A stretch of DNA of 39,508 bases, from contig JBJDXJ010000031.1 in assembly GCA_051866635.1 (NCBI GenBank), positions 1 through 39,508 of the forward strand, given 5' to 3'. The stretch's first letter is position 1. The number at the start of each line of letters is the position of its first letter. The stretch is from Clostridia bacterium. Lineage in GTDB: Bacteria > Bacillota > Clostridia > UMGS1883. Of this stretch, positions 1 through 39,508 are shown one piece after another. Below the pieces are notes generated by a model. The model was not told the origin of the DNA and made no database searches. It saw only the letters and a list, made by a program, of their open reading frames with translations. Position numbers and translations under genes: made by a program.

Positions 1-446
1 GCGGCGGCAAGAAGCCTTTCAGACAGAAGGGTACAGGCCGTGCAAGACAGGGTTCCACTCGTGCTCCCCAGTGGACAAAGGGTGGTGTAGCTCTCGGTCC
101 TAAGCCCAGAGATTACTCCTACAGCCTTAACAAGAAGGTTAAGAAGCTTGCTATGGTAAGCGCACTTTCCGCAAAGGCGGCAGAAGGCGAAGTTGCAGTG
201 GTTGAAAGCCTTGCAATGGACGAAATCAAGACAAAGACAATGGCAAATCTCCTTAGTGCTGTAGGTGCTAAGAAGGCCCTTGTTATCACAGGCGAAATGA
301 ACGAAAATGTTTACCTTAGCACAAGAAACATCAAGGGTGCTAAGACAGCATTCGTTGGTATGCTTAACGTATACGATATCCTTAACAGCGACATCTTGGT
401 TGCAGGTAAGGATGCTGTAGCTAAACTTGAGGAGGTGTATGCATAA
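1..446 (+). CDS. rplD: 50S ribosomal protein L4 (5'-truncated by window edge)
   Basis: Frame open from base 3: [24 protein letters not shown] (L4 signature), continuing into ORF 153-446; precedes L23. Confidence 0.97.
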
Positions 447-32498: not shown

Positions 32499-32858
32499 AT
32501 GGCATTTTTAGATGAATTAAAGGATATGGCAACAGATGCCGCACAGGTGGCAAGCAAAAAGGTTAATGATGTCTATGCTGTTACAAAGGTAAAAATGGAC
32601 ATATCCGAAAACAAAAGCAAAATTCGTGCTTTGTACCGTGAACTGGGCGAAATGGTTTACAAAGCATCGAAGGGCGAAGTGGAGGAAGACAGCAACGCAA
32701 TCGAGGACAAAATTGCGGAAATAAGCCTTGTAATGGATGCCTTGGAGGAGCTTAACGAGGCAGAAAGACATATTAAAAAGGTAAAGGTTTGCCCCACTTG
32801 TAAGGAACAGATAGACGAAAAATCAGCCTATTGCCCCAGGTGTGGCAACGAGGTTTAA
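32499..32858 (+). CDS. Coiled-coil protein with C-terminal zinc ribbon
   Basis: Helical N-terminus; CPTC...YCPRCG. Confidence 0.8.
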   Translation: MAFLDELKDMATDAAQVASKKVNDVYAVTKVKMDISENKSKIRALYRELGEMVYKASKGEVEEDSNAIEDKIAEISLVMDALEELNEAERHIKKVKVCPTCKEQIDEKSAYCPRCGNEV

Positions 32859-32887
32859 AAGGTGAATGTAAAGTAGGAGGTATACTT

Positions 32888-33244
32888 ATGAAAATAACTG
32901 TGAAAAAAACAGCAGTCGGTGTTCTTGCGGCGGCGATTGTGCTTTCTGTGGGAGCAGGTGCATTTGCGGCAGATAAAGTCTGCATAAGAAATTTCAAATG
33001 CCAAGATAGCGTTTGTGAATATGCCGAAAACATCTGTATCCATGGAGATATGGACTCTGACGGCATTTGTGACTGCGGAAAAAATAACTGCAACTATGTT
33101 GACGCTGACGGCGACGGCGTGTGCGATAATGTGAAAGCCGAATGTAAATTAGGCGAAGGTAAAGGTTTAGGCTTGGGACACACTAAGCACGCTATGGATA
33201 ATTGTGGCAACGGCCACAGTAAAGGTCACGGTAAGTGCAAATAA
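32888..33244 (+). CDS. Secreted Cys-rich protein with DxDxDGxCD motifs
   Basis: ATG after AGGAGG; signal peptide ending AFA; DMDSDGICD and DADGDGVCD; Gly/His tail. Confidence 0.75.
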   Translation: MKITVKKTAVGVLAAAIVLSVGAGAFAADKVCIRNFKCQDSVCEYAENICIHGDMDSDGICDCGKNNCNYVDADGDGVCDNVKAECKLGEGKGLGLGHTKHAMDNCGNGHSKGHGKCK

Positions 33245-33245
33245 G

Positions 33246-33310
33246 AACAAAGTGTCTCCTCACTTTTGGCAATAGCTTAGCTAAGGTAGACAGAGGAGAA
33301 AACACTTTGT
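33246..33310 (+). repeat. Left 65-bp boundary hairpin element
   Basis: Inverted copy at 37441-37506; shared blocks AACAAAGTGTCTCC, GCAATAGCTTAGCTAAGGTA, AAAACACTTTGT. Confidence 0.88.
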
Positions 33311-33313
33311 AAT

Positions 33314-33365
33314 GCCATGTGCGTTTTCCGAGTTTTCGAGGAAATTCTCGCACGGCAATAAAATC
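33314..33365 (+). repeat. Imperfect hairpin element, copy 2
   Basis: GCCATGTGCGTTTT...GGAAATTCTCGCACGGCAATAAAATC; see 30301-30356. Confidence 0.65.
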
Positions 33366-33375
33366 AAAATTTATT

Positions 33376-33418
33376 TTTTTACATTATAGGAAATGAGGAA
33401 TTTCCTATAATGTAAAAA
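33376..33418. repeat. 19-bp perfect inverted repeat (possible terminator)
   Basis: TTTTTACATTATAGGAAAT-gagga-ATTTCCTATAATGTAAAAA. Confidence 0.85.
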
Positions 33419-33438
33419 GCATTTAAAATCCATATAAT

Positions 33439-33480
33439 AAAAATGGAGTAGCTCCAAAATTTTGGAGCTACTCCATTTTT
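33439..33480. repeat. Spacerless 42-bp perfect palindrome (possible bidirectional terminator)
   Basis: AAAAATGGAGTAGCTCCAAAA|TTTTGGAGCTACTCCATTTTT. Confidence 0.88.
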
Positions 33481-33597
33481 TTGTTATCCAACCTTATACA
33501 TAATAATATTAACAGTAAATGTTAAAATTCATTGATATCCTCTAATAGTATGTTTTTGTAAGTGGTAGAATACATAGAGGAAAGGAAGTTGATTTGA

Positions 33598-34437
33598 ATG
33601 AGAAAAATCACAAATGAGCTAATTCATAGCTTTAAAAACTATTTAATTGAGGAGGAAAAAAGCGAAAACACCGTAGAAAAATATATCCGTGATATTACCT
33701 TTTTTATGGCTTGGCTTTGCGGCAAAGAAGTAACAAAAATATTGGCTTTGGAGTATAAAAAGGAACTTTGCGAAAAATATGCCCCTGCAAGTGTAAATAG
33801 CGTAATATCTTCCCTAAACAGCTTTTTTGCATTTATGGAATGGCATGATGTACGCATAAAGGCACTAAAAATACAAAGGCAGATATTTTCAAGCAAAGAC
33901 AAGGAACTGACCAAAGCTGAATATGAAAGACTACTCACAGCAGCTAAAAGCAAAAAGAATGAAAGATTATATTACCTTATACAGACAATTTGTTCAACGG
34001 GCATCCGTGTAAGCGAATTACGCCACATTACCATATCAGCCGTGAAATCAGGACAAGCCGCAATAAATTGCAAAGGCAAAATGCGTGTGGTAATACTTCC
34101 AAAAGAGCTATGTAAAATGTTAAAGGTATATATTAAAGAAAATAATATTAAAAACGGTTCCGTATTCGTAAGCAGAAACGGCAAACCCTTGGACAGAAGT
34201 TATATATGGAAGATGTTAAAAGCATTATGCGACACTGCCGGAGTGTCAAAGGACAAGGTGTTTCCGCACAATTTTCGTCATCTTTTTGCAAGAACTTATT
34301 ACAGCTTGCAGAAAGACGTGGTAAGACTTGCCGATATATTAGGACATTCTTCCGTAAACACTACAAGGATTTATACAATGAGCACGAGCGAGGTACACCG
34401 CAAGCAAATACAAAAGCTTGGGCTTTTAAGGTGTTAA
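33598..34437 (+). CDS. Tyrosine recombinase (Xer/Fim-like, putative invertase)
   Basis: 279 aa; TGIRVSE (R), FPHNFRH (HxxR), LGHSS...TTRIY (H, Y) catalytic residues intact. Confidence 0.93.
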   Translation: MRKITNELIHSFKNYLIEEEKSENTVEKYIRDITFFMAWLCGKEVTKILALEYKKELCEKYAPASVNSVISSLNSFFAFMEWHDVRIKALKIQRQIFSSKDKELTKAEYERLLTAAKSKKNERLYYLIQTICSTGIRVSELRHITISAVKSGQAAINCKGKMRVVILPKELCKMLKVYIKENNIKNGSVFVSRNGKPLDRSYIWKMLKALCDTAGVSKDKVFPHNFRHLFARTYYSLQKDVVRLADILGHSSVNTTRIYTMSTSEVHRKQIQKLGLLRC

Positions 34438-34447
34438 AATAAAAAAG

Positions 34448-34471
34448 CCACATAATTGTGATTATGTGGAA
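34448..34471 (+). repeat. Left recombination site (IRL) of the invertible segment
   Basis: CCACATAAT-TGTG-ATTATGTGG-AA; 22 bp perfectly inverted at 34697-34718. Confidence 0.88.
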
Positions 34472-34506
34472 CGCTTATATAAATAAACTTGTTACATATT
34501 TACTTA

Positions 34507-34534
34507 ATTCTAACATACATAGTCAAAAAGTCAA
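34507..34534 (-). promoter_or_regulatory. SigmaA-type promoter inside the invertible segment, facing away from the peptide gene
   Basis: Minus strand TTGACT-16 bp-TAGAAT with TGn extension. Confidence 0.65.
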
Positions 34535-34696
34535 TAGTTTTAGCAAAATTTACAAGAAAATCTCTATAGGTGCACAATAAAACTCTAATATGCATAAAAA
34601 ACGACATCAAAAATCGACCGATGAAAATTAATTGACTAACATCGGTCTTGTTTTCATGTCTAAAATTACTAATACAGGCACTTATTTGTTATATTT

Positions 34697-34720
34697 TTCC
34701 ACATAATCACAATTATGTAG
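34697..34720 (-). repeat. Right recombination site (IRR) of the invertible segment
   Basis: TTCCACATAAT-CACA-ATTATGTAG; reverse complement of IRL at 23 of 24 positions. Confidence 0.88.
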
Positions 34721-34801
34721 TAATATATAATTTTTTGTTATAAAGCGACTATTCCGCTTTATATATTATTTATTTCTTTTAAAGGGGAGGTGAAATGAAA
34801 T

Positions 34802-35011
34802 ATGAAAACAATGAATACTGTAGAAATGCAATTAGTAAATGCTGGAGCCACATATGCAACTTGTCCTGTTTGTGGATATTCACGTAAACTTTATTGGACT
34901 GAATCAATTTTAGGTAAAAAAGCCGGTATTAAAAGAGCAGAGTTTAGCCTTAGTGTCCAGCACCAGAAAATAGGAAAAGCTACTAACAAAAGCAAATCTG
35001 TCCATAATTAA
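34802..35011 (+). CDS. Double-glycine-type leader peptide precursor (bacteriocin- or pheromone-like)
   Basis: Leader MKTMNTVEMQLVNAG, cationic core with CPVC; RBS GGAGG; adjacent to a C39 exporter. Confidence 0.78.
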   Translation: MKTMNTVEMQLVNAGATYATCPVCGYSRKLYWTESILGKKAGIKRAEFSLSVQHQKIGKATNKSKSVHN

Positions 35012-35108
35012 ATATTATAAGATACTATAGGATATTTTAATAACAATAATAAAGCAATAGAATAGTTATTGCTTTATTATATAAAATTGAAATAAAGGAC
35101 AATTGTAA

Positions 35109-37265
35109 ATGTTTAAATATGTAAAACAACACGATATAAAAGATTGTGGTGCCGCTTGTCTTTCAATGATATGCAGATATTATAAATTAAAACTGCCTAT
35201 GGCAAGATTTAGAGAGCTTATTAAGGTTGACAACAACGGAGCAAACATATATGGCATCGTTGATGGTGCAAAAAAATTAGGTTTGAAAGCAACAGCGTTA
35301 CAAGGTAATGCTGATGAATTTATAGATAGTGTTCAAAAAAAGGAGTTTTCTTTTCCTGTCATTGCAAGGGTTATAATTGATGAAGTGTTGGAGCATTATG
35401 TAGTTGTATATAAAATGACAACCAGATACATATATGTTGCTGACCCCGGCAGAGGAAAGAAAAAGTATAAATATGATGAATTTTTTAATATTTGGACAGG
35501 ACACATTGTAACATTTGAAAAAACAGCGAATTTCAAAGAAGCAAATGAATGTAAAGGCACACTCACACGATTTGTTAAATTAGTAACCAATCAAAAGAAA
35601 TTACTTGTTGCGGTTTTCTTTATTTCGCTCATAATTTCCTTAATTAGTGTGTTGGGTGCTTTTATTTTTCAGATAATAATTGATGGCATTGAAACCGGGC
35701 AAACAGACGGCTTTTTAGGTTTAACTTTAGGTCAGATTTGCATTGGAATAATGGTATTGTATTTATTCCAAATGATTATAAATATTCTAAGGGGATATTT
35801 TCTGTCTGTTCTATCAAAAAATGTGGATTTACCACTTATGTTAAACTATTATAATCACATTGCAGATTTGCCAATTAAACAATTAAGCGGAAGAAAAACA
35901 GGAGAACTGATGTCACGCTTCAATGATGCATCAAGCATTAAAGATGCTATTTCAAGTGCGACACTATCCCTTATGCTTGACACACTTATGGTTGTTCTAT
36001 GTGTATTTATATTATATGCACTTAATCCTATCTTGTTTTTTATTACATTATTTACCGTTATAGCGTATGCAGTAGTTGTTATTTGCTTTCTCAATCCCAT
36101 AAAGAATATTAACGAAAAACTTATGGAAGAAAATGCTGAGGTAACATCGTACTTAAAAGAATCGGTTGACGGAATTGAAACCGTAAAGGCTTTTGGAGCT
36201 GAAAATATAATAAAAGAAAAGACTGCAAGCAAATTTACAAAGTTTGTCCAAAAATCTATGAAAGGCTCTATTATTTACACCATACAGGACAGCTTATCGG
36301 GATTAGTAGCTTCTGTTGGAGTTATTATTCTTCTTTGGTGTGGAACAATGCTTGTAATGAAAGATATTATTTCGCTTGGAACTTTGATAACATTTTATTC
36401 GTTGCTTGGATATTTTTTAGACCCAATTCAGAGTTTGATAAATTTACAGCCTGAAATTCAAACTGCGGTTGTTGCAGCTGACAGATTAAATGATATTCTT
36501 GATTTGGAAACAGAAAGTGAAACAACAGACAAATTAGAACTTGATAATAATATTGACATAAAAAATGTTAGTTTTAGATATGGGAATAGAGAGCTTGTAT
36601 TACAGAATATTGATATGACGATTGCACAAGGCGAAACGGTAGCATTAGTCGGTGAAAGCGGTTCGGGAAAAACAACGCTTGCTAAGCTGATTATGGCATT
36701 TTATGAGCCGGAAGAAGGACAGGTTTATATCGGTGGAAAAAACATAGCTGAATTAAATTCCCGAAGTGTTAGAGAAAATATTGCATATATTTCACAAGAT
36801 GTATTTCTTTTCTCTGATTCCATAAAAAATAATCTTACTCTTGGCAACAAGGACATCGCTATGGAAGAAATTGAAAAGGCTTGTAAATTAAGTATGGCAG
36901 ATGAATTTATTAAGAAAATGCCTATGGGTTATAACACGCTCATTGGTGAAAACGGACACGATTTATCCGGAGGTCAAAAACAGCGACTTGCAATAGCAAG
37001 AGCCTTATTAAAAAAACCAAAGATACTTATTATGGACGAAGCTACAAGTAACCTTGATACTGTAACAGAAAAAAGTATTAAAGAAACTATCAATAATCTA
37101 AGCGGGGATATCACTTGTATAATTATAGCTCACCGATTAAGTACAATAAAAAACTGTGATAAGATTTATGTTATGAATAGAGGAATTATTGTTGAAAGCG
37201 GAAATCACGATGAATTGGTAAAAAAGAATGGACTGTATAAAAAGTTTTATAATGAAAATGTGTAA
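35109..37265 (+). CDS. Peptidase-containing ABC transporter (C39 + TMD + ATPase)
   Basis: QHDIKDCGAAC, HYVVV, ADPG; TM segments; GESGSGKT, LSGGQKQR, IMDEATS. Confidence 0.96.
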   Translation: MFKYVKQHDIKDCGAACLSMICRYYKLKLPMARFRELIKVDNNGANIYGIVDGAKKLGLKATALQGNADEFIDSVQKKEFSFPVIARVIIDEVLEHYVVVYKMTTRYIYVADPGRGKKKYKYDEFFNIWTGHIVTFEKTANFKEANECKGTLTRFVKLVTNQKKLLVAVFFISLIISLISVLGAFIFQIIIDGIETGQTDGFLGLTLGQICIGIMVLYLFQMIINILRGYFLSVLSKNVDLPLMLNYYNHIADLPIKQLSGRKTGELMSRFNDASSIKDAISSATLSLMLDTLMVVLCVFILYALNPILFFITLFTVIAYAVVVICFLNPIKNINEKLMEENAEVTSYLKESVDGIETVKAFGAENIIKEKTASKFTKFVQKSMKGSIIYTIQDSLSGLVASVGVIILLWCGTMLVMKDIISLGTLITFYSLLGYFLDPIQSLINLQPEIQTAVVAADRLNDILDLETESETTDKLELDNNIDIKNVSFRYGNRELVLQNIDMTIAQGETVALVGESGSGKTTLAKLIMAFYEPEEGQVYIGGKNIAELNSRSVRENIAYISQDVFLFSDSIKNNLTLGNKDIAMEEIEKACKLSMADEFIKKMPMGYNTLIGENGHDLSGGQKQRLAIARALLKKPKILIMDEATSNLDTVTEKSIKETINNLSGDITCIIIAHRLSTIKNCDKIYVMNRGIIVESGNHDELVKKNGLYKKFYNENV

Positions 37266-37440
37266 AGGAACGAAATAACTATAAAAAATAGCTTTGATTA
37301 TTGTTGCGGCTTTAATTGTATTAGATATAAAAAGATTATGGAGCTGATGGAGGTGCTGTTAAATGGCAAAAAAAGAAGTTAAAACAGATTTATATGCTTT
37401 CTAAAATCAATTTTCTCGCAATTATAAATGCACACATATA

Positions 37441-37506
37441 ACAAAGTGTTTTGCCTCTCTTTACCTTAGCTAAGCTATTGCAAAAGAGTAATGGAGACAC
37501 TTTGTT
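37441..37506 (-). repeat. Right 66-bp boundary hairpin element
   Basis: Reverse complement aligns with 33246-33310. Confidence 0.88.
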
Positions 37507-37693
37507 TTTTTATTAATAAAATGTTCATAGAATAAAAATGGTTTAAACATGAATAGGCTTTATCATATGCTGTAAGAGTGAATTATAATGCAAATGGCAA
37601 CATGAATATAATTCATTATACAACCTTGCCCGCCACCGCAAGGCTGTAGTAAGTTTTATTTCTACTTGTGGCAGAAAGGCTATGTGGATTATC

Positions 37694-39508
37694 ATGAAGA
37701 ACAAAAAGGCAGCAAAAATTGTAAAATGTGTTGTAGCAGTTCTGGTTGTGGCGGCATTGGCGGCAGGCGGTATTTTTATTTTTAAAAACCGCAAAACAGA
37801 AGAAACGGAAGAAGCAATTCCAACTGCTGTGGCAACAAGACGGACAATCGTTAACACCGTTACAGGCTCAGGCACTGTCGAAGCCTATGAAACCTACAAC
37901 ATTGTTCCCAAGGTTACAGGCGATATAATTTACTGTAATGTGGAAGAAGGGGACTGGGTTGAGGAAGATCAGGTCTTGTACAGATTTGACTCTGAAAAAA
38001 GTGACAACGCCATCAAAACAGCTACAAACAGTGTGGAATCTGCCAAGCTTTCCCTTGATACAGCAAAGGAAAATGTAGAAAAGCTTACTGTAACTGCAAA
38101 GGAACAGGGAATTGTAAGCAATCTTACAGTTCTTGTGGGCGAAAATGTCAGCGGAAATATATGCACTCTTACAGATAATACATACATGATTGCCGAAATC
38201 CCCGTAGCTGTAGGCATGGTGGGAAATATTCATGTGGGCGAAGAAGTAAGTGTAAGCCTTGAAAAGTACATGACAACAGTTACAGCTACTGTTGACAGAA
38301 TTTCAGGTGCTTCCTTTGCAGGTGAAAAAGGTGCCATGGTTAAAACTGTGGACGTTAAAATTACAAACCCCGGCTCAATCGAAGAAGGTACAATGGCTTA
38401 TGCAACTTTCCATACTTCGCAGGGTGACATTGAAGGTGCACAGGCGGCAGAGCTTCATTACCCTTCAAGCAGTAAGGTAACGGCTGAACAGTCCGGTACA
38501 CTGGTAAAACTTACCGTTAAGAACGGTGACTGGGTAAACAAGGGTCAGGTAATTGCCGTTCTGGAAAATTCCTCCGTTGAAAACCAGCTTACAAATGCCA
38601 CTATGAGTTATGACAATGCTGTTTCAAACCTCAGCGACAGAAAAAAGGAAGCGGAAGACTATACCGTTACTTCCCCTATTGCAGGCAAAGTGCTGGAAAA
38701 GACATATAAAAAGGGCGACACCGTTGCAGGCAGTAACTCCACAACATTAATGGTAGTTGCCGATACTACAAAAATGAAATTTACAATCAATGTAGACGAA
38801 CTTGACGTAGCAAAAATTGCTGTAGGACAGAGCGTTGAAATAACAGCAGATGCTATCGAGGGTGTAAATTTTGAAGGTATTATTGAAAATGTTTCAATGC
38901 TCGGCACATCTTCCTCCGGTGTAACATATTACCCCGTAGTTGTAAGAATTGATGAGCCCGGTGACCTTATGCCCGGCATGAACGTAAGTGCTGAAATTAT
39001 TGCCGAAAGAGCAGACAATGTTGTAGCCGTTCCCACAGGTGCCGTAACATATTATGACGGTAAGTATTATGTTACTGTTGTAGGTGAAGTGGACCTTGGT
39101 ACCAATATGGGTAAGGATATGGCAGATGTAGGCGAACAGGCACCCTTTGAAATGTCTTCTATGCCTGAAGGAGGCGAACAGCCACCCTTTGAAATGTCCT
39201 CTATGCCTGAAGGCGGCATGGGCGGCGGTATGCCACAGGGTGAAATGGGAGGAACAATGGGCGATATGCTCCAAGGTTCACAAAGTCAGCACGGCGGCAA
39301 GGGACAGAAAGGCACAAAGGGTGAAGAGGCTAACGGTGATATAACAGCAAATCAGACTATGTACGAAGAAGCACGGCGTGTTGAAGTTACAACAGGTGTT
39401 TCCGATGACGATTATATTGAAATTAAAGAAGGTATATCTGTAGGTCAGATAGTTAATGTTACAGACTCATCACAGTCAAGCTCTTCCGGCTTCTTTGGCG
39501 GCATGGGC
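37694..39508 (+). CDS. Efflux periplasmic adaptor / membrane-fusion protein (HlyD/MacA-like), 3'-truncated by window edge
   Basis: Not in ORF track (no stop in window). MKNKK + TM anchor; lipoyl-like halves VEEGDWV, VKNGDWV, VTSPIAGKV; VDELDVAKIAVGQ; LMPGMNVSAEI. Confidence 0.9.
   Translation, partial: MKNKKAAKIVKCVVAVLVVAALAAGGIFIFKNRKTEETEEAIPTAVATRRTIVNTVTGSGTVEAYETYNIVPKVTGDIIYCNVEEGDWVEEDQVLYRFDSEKSDNAIKTATNSVESAKLSLDTAKENVEKLTVTAKEQGIVSNLTVLVGENVSGNICTLTDNTYMIAEIPVAVGMVGNIHVGEEVSVSLEKYMTTVTATVDRISGASFAGEKGAMVKTVDVKITNPGSIEEGTMAYATFHTSQGDIEGAQAAELHYPSSSKVTAEQSGTLVKLTVKNGDWVNKGQVIAVLENSSVENQLTNATMSYDNAVSNLSDRKKEAEDYTVTSPIAGKVLEKTYKKGDTVAGSNSTTLMVVADTTKMKFTINVDELDVAKIAVGQSVEITADAIEGVNFEGIIENVSMLGTSSSGVTYYPVVVRIDEPGDLMPGMNVSAEIIAERADNVVAVPTGAVTYYDGKYYVTVVGEVDLGTNMGKDMADVGEQAPFEMSSMPEGGEQPPFEMSSMPEGGMGGGMPQGEMGGTMGDMLQGSQSQHGGKGQKGTKGEEANGDITANQTMYEEARRVEVTTGVSDDDYIEIKEGISVGQIVNVTDSSQSSSSGFFGGMG
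39130..39213 (+). repeat. Two 42-bp in-frame tandem repeats (GEQxPFEMSSMPEG)
   Basis: AGGCGAACAGSCACCCTTTGAAATGTCYTCTATGCCTGAAGG x2, 2 mismatches. Confidence 0.9.

Follow-up and report, generated by a model that had tools for sequence, protein, structure and literature searches.

Most known cases of phase variation by invertible promoters concern bacterial surface structures, as in the fimS element of Escherichia coli, a promoter segment of about 300 bp that is inverted by FimB and FimE and has fimbriae as its cargo. The window analyzed here (the whole 39,508-nt contig JBJDXJ010000031.1 of assembly GCA_051866635.1, from a Clostridia bacterium placed in UMGS1883) contains a 3.7-kb unit made up of a tyrosine recombinase gene, a short promoter-bearing segment between two inverted palindromic sites, a gene for a small peptide, and a gene for an ATP-binding cassette (ABC) exporter with a C39 peptidase domain. 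An earlier note, made from the letters of the window, had proposed that this is a phase-variable peptide-secretion system assembled in its OFF state; our analysis leads to the same view, and we put at about 0.8 the probability that the unit is a self-contained phase-variation switch gating a peptide-secretion operon. The likeness to fimS is that a tyrosine recombinase is encoded right next to an invertible promoter that can turn the neighboring operon on or off. The fim switch, however, has 9-bp repeats, needs IHF and Lrp, and employs two recombinases of different directional bias, whereas here there are dif-like palindromes with a 4-nt asymmetric center, a single adjoining recombinase, and a bidirectional terminator within the segment. 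Inversion has also been tied to bacteriocins, in that a serine invertase swaps the tail-fiber ends of carotovoricin-type phage-tail bacteriocins and alters their killing range; here a tyrosine recombinase would instead turn a peptide operon on or off.

The switch type itself is not new, and belongs to a common Clostridia family. The main text of a catalogue of invertons links inverton group 139 (33 invertons, 32 of them from Clostridia) to adjoining tyrosine recombinases (PMC11892184). The switch described here resembles that group and its invertase group 35 in being a short intergenic invertible segment beside a tyrosine-type recombinase gene and in belonging to a type found in the class Clostridia, with several copies in many strains; it also resembles group 139 in that the promoter cannot itself regulate the neighboring recombinase gene (PMC11892184). 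The regulated genes named in the catalogue's main text are for cell-surface products, and the terms "bacteriocin", "peptide", and "ABC transporter" are entirely absent from it, with 0 occurrences (PMC11892184). In the open-access literature we found no inverton ahead of a peptide bacteriocin or a C39-exporter cassette, which agrees with the earlier remark that such a cargo is not well described for invertons; the cargo, and its packaging with the switch as one movable unit, appear to be undescribed. Coordinates of the features are collected in Table 1.

Table 1. Features of the switch, its cargo, and the surrounding insertion (positions in the window)
Feature	Position	Strand	Details
Xer-like tyrosine recombinase, presumed invertase of the adjoining switch	33598-34437	+	279 aa; open reading frame (ORF) without internal stop
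Left recombination site	34448-34469	.	CCACATAAT-TGTG-ATTATGTGG; 9-nt palindromic arms, asymmetric center TGTG at 34457-34460
Invertible interior with promoter and bidirectional terminator	34470-34698	.	about 230 nt, bounded by both sites
Promoter TTGACT-16-TAGAAT with TG extension	34534..34507	-	points to the recombinase gene (OFF)
Bidirectional terminator hairpin	34603-34660	.	GACCGATG...CATCGGTC; U-runs on both strands
Right recombination site	34699-34720	.	CCACATAAT-CACA-ATTATGTAG; inverted copy, center CACA at 34708-34711
Leader hairpin between switch and peptide gene	34739-34763	+	terminator-like
Peptide precursor	34802-35011	+	69 aa; ORF, GGAGG 9 nt upstream
Perfect inverted repeat of 14 nt in the peptide-exporter gap	35046-35080	+	100%
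Peptidase-C39 ABC exporter, PCAT/AMS type	35109-37265	+	718 aa; Pfam C39, ABC_membrane, and ABC_tran
Insertion of about 4.9 kb holding the whole module	32852-37769	.	relative to same-genus genomes

The recombinase carries a phage-integrase domain (PF00589, E = 2.7e-31) and an N-terminal SAM-like domain (PF02899) in Pfam, and its catalytic motifs are intact: GIRVSE starts at residue 135, HNFRH at 224, GHSS at 249, and TRIY at 256, placing the catalytic residues at R137, H224-x-x-R227, H250, and Y259. Its best sequence matches among structures and NCBIfam models are to the Xer proteins of the Xer/dif system; the nearest solved chains are XerA (5hxy, E = 3.5e-24) and XerD (1a0p), and the protein falls under every NCBIfam Xer cut-off (151 bits against 220 for XerA, 141 against 329.6 for XerD). 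Two short inverted arms around a short central region make up a dif site, and the sites here have the same arm-center-arm layout. They differ from dif, which occurs once per replicon, in forming inverted pairs about 250 nt apart, and the recombinase differs from Xer in having four paralogs in the genome, each beside its own pair of sites. Homologs of the recombinase are abundant (7932 protein clusters at E <= 1e-60 among 7997 candidates scored). Many of the close ones lie on contigs just 0.9-3 kb long; this is an impression only, and so is the thought that such short contigs would fit assembly breaks at switches present both ways.

The palindromes were described in the earlier note as one site and its inverted copy, and this is what is found. 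The left site begins after a gap of 10 nt from the end of the recombinase stop codon, the right one lies 251 nt farther on (start to start), and the 18-nt ACATAAT-N4-ATTATGT parts of the two are exact reverse complements, within an inverted repeat that reaches 37 nt at 81%. With at most one mismatch allowed, the window holds two occurrences of this pattern where 0.02 would be expected by chance, and none of 100 shuffles of the window held at least two. Read on the minus strand, the left site folds into a hairpin of 9 bp (-9.2 kcal/mol, z -3.5) with a T-run behind it, so that it is also terminator-like for leftward transcripts; the right-site hairpin has no T-run directly after it. Within the segment, the leftward promoter that the note had picked out scores 10/12 and is the best of five promoter-like sites in 33300-35200, a score that expresses consensus match only, and the distance from the end of its -10 box to the faced site is 39 nt. 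The internal terminator folds with -18.1 kcal/mol (z -4.0) on the plus strand and -23.3 kcal/mol (z -5.2) on the minus strand.

Evidence that the switch is a real one comes from its many relatives. The assembly, in 63 contigs of which the window is C31, encodes four recombinase paralogs (100, 74, 64, and 50% identical to that of the window), and each has, no more than some tens of bases past its end, an ACATAAT-N4-ATTATGT-type site and, 210-314 nt farther on, the inverted copy of that site; the centers are TGTG, TTGT, CTAC, and GTGT. A site pair is present at 22 of the 23 loci fetched for this recombinase type, the sole exception, L028, being a 1.9-kb locus at the start of its contig in which a single site is seen. 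The exact site pattern was found in 38 of 64 family genomes, and the same pattern written backwards, as a control, in none of the 64. Among the matches listed there are 75 distinct sites, which make up 33 pairs and 9 singles; pairs are spaced 178-347 nt apart, except for three near 1050 nt. The arms never change, and the centers are exactly reverse-complementary in all 33 of these pairs, a covariation expected if strand exchange requires both partners to have the same central region. All eight genomes with at least two pairs among the matches listed have a different center for every pair. The GACCRRT...AYYGGTC hairpin of the internal terminator recurs in 17 of the 24 short interiors, and most of the others have a near variant of it.

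Promoter geometry is equally regular. When both interior strands of 25 modules were scored for TTGACA-16..18-TATAAT, each interior had one clearly best promoter, mostly of the form TTGACA-17-TGnTATAAT, whose -10 box ends 34-39 nt from the faced site in 22 of the 25 and 17-18 nt from it in the other three. Of these promoters 6 are aimed at the cargo and 19 at the recombinase; homologous interiors occur in both orientations between species. Three pairs of orthologous modules (L006/L031, L023/L027, and L015/L026) are collinear in their recombinase and cargo flanks (66-86% identity), but the 274-287 nt bounded by the sites, and exactly these, align inverted at 78-81%; the first of these, L006, is the module on contig C38 of the same genome as the window, where it is ON, its ortholog in G033 being OFF. 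In these alignments, homologous segments of the switch family are inverted between species. The comparison of orientation in relatives that the earlier note had called for found both orientations in the family, in three ortholog pairs, and a single orientation in the two known copies of the window locus, the one orthologous module found (L040, below) being also OFF. When the DNA of positions 34300-35300 was compared with the 64 family genomes, only the recombinase end and the left site were matched.

It is hardly credible, against this background, that the palindromes are not inversion sites at all but plain terminator hairpins, or att sites through which an island integrates and excises. Every site does form a hairpin of its own, that on the left is scored as a terminator on the minus strand, and the module does sit in an insertion; but invariant arms around varying cores that always remain reverse complements, and segments inverted between collinear flanks, are at odds with this explanation, as are the island borders (32852 and 37769), which lie far from the sites. 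Moreover, tyrosine recombinases acting on sites in inverted orientation give inversion, not excision.

Several features of the family modules may be recorded here. In the same genome, the module at C38:75586-76707 has a TTGACT-17-TATAAT promoter facing a gene for a signal-peptide protein; those at C49:35536-36713 and C35:5495-6555 are OFF, the latter lying before a gene for a 374-aa protein that is glycosyltransferase-like by eye. The commonest first cargo gene of the family encodes a protein of about 185-200 aa whose N-terminal motif is TetR-like by eye (seen in L013, L016, L017, L019-L021, L023, L024, L027, and L049). Six loci (L013, L016, L019, L020, L023, and L024) have a third site, a tandem copy with the same center 32-35 nt past the second, so that there are three sites and possibly two alternative inversions. 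A class with interiors of about 1050 nt and the same arms is represented by L022, G033:C28:3740-4806, G035:C60:9404-10484, and G042:C70:30348-31415.

The cargo of the window switch is, as first proposed, a small peptide and a C39 exporter. The exporter scores 653 bits against NCBIfam TIGR01193 (cut-off 523.85) and aligns end to end with PCAT1 (4ry2, E = 1.6e-202), its DCGAACLS, HYVVVY, and VADPG segments lining up with the PCAT1 peptidase motifs. The precursor consists of a 15-aa double-glycine-type leader ending in Asn-Ala-Gly (by eye, with Glu at -8, hydrophobic residues at -4, -7, and -12, and an Ala-Gly end) and a 54-aa cationic CxxC peptide; cleavage would fall after Gly15. A small precursor gene directly upstream of the exporter gene is a further likeness to PCAT1 of Clostridium thermocellum and ComA-type AMS exporters. 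Systems of the PCAT/ComA type have fixed promoters and often quorum-sensing two-component control; here, by contrast, the promoter lies on invertible DNA, the leader ends in Ala-Gly, and among the ORFs of the island (32852-37769) there is no histidine kinase, response regulator, or other regulator gene. A peptide-pheromone quorum-sensing module of the ComC/BlpC type was considered and rejected, no kinase and response regulator adjoining in the island. The gap between the peptide and exporter genes (35012-35108) folds with -18 kcal/mol (z -4.5) and holds the 14-nt inverted repeat, which may be a partial terminator or an mRNA stabilizer.

The peptide belongs to a rare family, without a name in Pfam or NCBIfam, that is marked by a double-glycine-type leader, a CxxC motif, an invariant Trp, and a C-terminal His or Cys. 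The window member has no Pfam or NCBIfam family (no NCBIfam family at E <= 10), and a search of 5.8 billion proteins gave a single homolog (P0002, 78% identity). A profile search of 1.84 billion representatives gave nine matches at E <= 0.001, namely the window peptide itself, six more of 62-72 aa, and two long proteins (858 and 4125 aa). In 11 aligned sequences M1, E8, M9, G15, C21, C24, and W32 are invariant, and most end in His or Cys. The peptide query was unmatched in 86 other genomes of the order save for a weak row in G041 (E 0.01), and a pattern search of genome contigs gave no match; in the G087 cassette, the peptide reaches TIGR01847 (16.6 against a cut-off of 15.7). An AlphaFold2 model (predicted local distance difference test score 76.9) has a CxxC beta-hairpin followed by helices; Foldseek against the PDB returned nothing at E <= 0.001, and its top weak rows, zinc fingers at E >= 1.5, are a lead only. 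In the ESM Atlas the best score was 0.85, among unnamed clusters. Metal binding by the CxxC peptide would be a guess. The secreted product would most likely be a bacteriocin-like effector, though it may also be a signal or of another kind.

Exporters 84-91% identical to that of the window are encoded in three genomes, with a further dozen exporter orthologs among the protein homologs, where P0004-P0018 are 81-93% identical. One of the three loci, L040, is the whole module over again: it has a recombinase (76% identical), sites with TGTG and CACA centers and one arm mismatch in each, a leader hairpin whose core GCGACTATTCCGC is identical to that of the window, two CxxC peptides with Ala-Gly and Gly-Gly leaders, and an exporter at 84% identity. 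Its interior is homologous to that of the window and in the same orientation (score 47 forward, 13 reverse), and its promoter, TTGACT-17-TATAAT, likewise points left (OFF). Homology between the two loci covers only 33575-37248 and the flanks differ; the unit they share consists of the recombinase, the switch, the peptide or peptides, and the exporter only. The other two cassettes, L041 and L046, have exporters 87-91% identical and no recombinase or site. Instead they have a near-consensus fixed TTGACA-17 promoter and a small divergent gene, by eye a helix-turn-helix regulator, and their leader peptides are unrelated to the window peptide, one of them scoring high enough for the double-glycine signal model. 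That the switch-less orthologous cassettes carry a fixed promoter suggests that the cassette depends on an upstream promoter. In both (L041:3700-4050 and L046:880-1200) the promoter spacer holds the palindrome ACACATATGTGT or a near copy of it, which looks like an operator. Other C39 exporters of the family genomes (two in G002, one each in G013 and G033) were set aside, being about 30% identical to that of the window and having no recombinase or site nearby. Pairing recombinase with exporter homologs by contig gave no link among the best 120 recombinase clusters, beyond which the 76% identical L040 recombinase would rank.

These observations suggest the following mechanism. The recombinase encoded in the window, or one of its three paralogs elsewhere in the genome, would recombine the two dif-like sites; because the arms are identical and the 4-nt centers are reverse complements, inversion of the segment of about 250 nt should be the only productive outcome. 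In the OFF state the leftward promoter would make a short RNA ending at the left-site hairpin and its U-run, the internal terminator would halt read-through from the recombinase gene, and the operon would be silent. After inversion (ON) the promoter would be turned rightward and lie about 39 nt ahead of the right site, and transcription would run through a leader of about 130 nt into the genes for the 69-aa precursor and the C39 ABC exporter, which in turn would cut the leader after Gly15 and secrete the 54-aa cationic CxxC peptide. The designation "OFF as assembled" follows from the family-typical spacing between the promoter and the site it faces. The window switch truly belongs to a known switch family and is in its OFF state. 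Inversion at the window locus, the role of the segment promoter as the sole promoter of the operon, the cleavage site, and the activity of the peptide are what we infer. Each part of the earlier interpretation, from the recombinase-driven inversion to the aim of the promoter at the operon after a flip, is supported at the level that sequence can show.

A number of findings weigh against this reading. Some concern the path from the switch to the operon. Downstream of the right site a weak pair of -35- and -10-like boxes can be read by eye (TTGTTA-17-TTTATA, at about 34731-34759, outside the segment), and the leader hairpin lies between the switch and the peptide gene, in a stretch (34725-34801) that folds with -15.3 kcal/mol (z -2.5). 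Such features could mean that the switch inverts without gating the operon, which would have a promoter of its own downstream of the right site, the flipping promoter then modulating expression or acting on the recombinase side, and that the conserved hairpin is a separate control point. We regard this as unlikely: the promoter scan lists no good sigma-70-type promoter on the plus strand between the right site and the peptide gene (34720-34802), the near-consensus promoters of the switch-less orthologous cassettes lie at the equivalent place, and the promoter geometry equals that of modules whose cargo begins right past the site.

Other findings concern the working order of the switch. Its promoter (TAGAAT, with a 16-nt spacer) is the weakest of the 25 scored, its right site has one mismatch in the outer arm, and both known copies of the module (window and L040) are OFF. 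Together with the arm mismatches of L040 and the recent insertion of the region, these count in favor of a decaying switch copy fixed OFF, which would have arrived by insertion and whose cassette would now be silent. We consider this a shade less likely again than a separate operon promoter, for both genomes have uninterrupted frames for the recombinase, the peptide, and the exporter, the proteins being 76-84% identical, which indicates selection since the two loci diverged; moreover, the 18-nt cores of the window sites are exact reverse complements, and the OFF state is the commoner one family-wide (19 of 25).

The remaining points are of a more general kind. Genome G088 has two modules with the same TGTG center (L048 on C25 and L045 on C60), so that separation of switches by their centers is a tendency and not a rule; were both on one chromosome, cross-recombination between them could occur, and the G088 assembly may be mixed. 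The sole sequencing run listed, which contains 0.06 of the sequence words and is not an RNA run, gave contigs of relatives only, mostly 85-95% alike, and was set aside as evidence on orientation. A read joint that skips 277 nt (34421 to 34699) was likewise discarded as evidence on inversion or expression, its 26-nt side being taken as cross-matching of the two similar sites in other organisms. A metagenome scan with the 22-nt site returned one unrelated high-G+C contig. On the cargo side, the window peptide matches no bacteriocin model and not the double-glycine signal model either, and there is no immunity gene in the island or in the unit shared with L040.

The whole module lies within a larger insertion. 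In eight of nine same-genus genomes the genes that flank the insertion, a zinc-ribbon gene on the left and an HlyD-like gene on the right, share a contig with 233-606 nt between them (the ninth has them on two different contigs), which identifies 32852-37769 of the window as inserted DNA. The HlyD-like gene (37682 to the contig end) was considered as a part of the module and rejected, since it is flank DNA in island-free same-genus genomes and is absent from L039-L041. Near the borders are several repeats. A 176-nt repeat at 33243-33418 has 45 BLAST hits in the genome itself (13 of at least 150 nt) and is also present many times, at 80-97%, in genomes of the same genus; as about 72 nt of it recur inverted (86%) at 37438-37509, copies bracket the module. 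A second repeat of about 100 nt (37600-37698), just upstream of the HlyD-like gene, has six hits in the genome and copies of 77-79% in relatives. A 118-aa ORF at 32888-33244, with a signal-peptide-like start, many Cys, His, and Gly residues, and no Pfam match, lies within the insertion and outside the unit shared with L040.

A more far-reaching reading, which we offer tentatively and hold to be rather doubtful, is that a mobile cassette of 3.7 kb puts a new family of CxxC...His peptides, secreted and probably binding metal, under a flip-switch, that only a heritable and reversible subpopulation makes and exports the peptide, and that one exporter lineage has been swapped between a stochastic front end and a regulator-controlled fixed promoter. 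If true, this would be a division of labor in bacteriocin-like warfare set by DNA inversion, not by quorum sensing or stress. The orthologous cassettes with a regulator and a fixed promoter form, with the switch-bearing ones, a natural pair for testing what stochastic control buys, and the invariant arms with covarying 4-nt centers offer a compact, testable model of how a genome can hold many switches. If the switch of the window does flip, subpopulations would differ heritably in whether they make a secreted and perhaps antagonistic peptide or not, which bears on the upkeep of costly public goods and toxins in gut communities.

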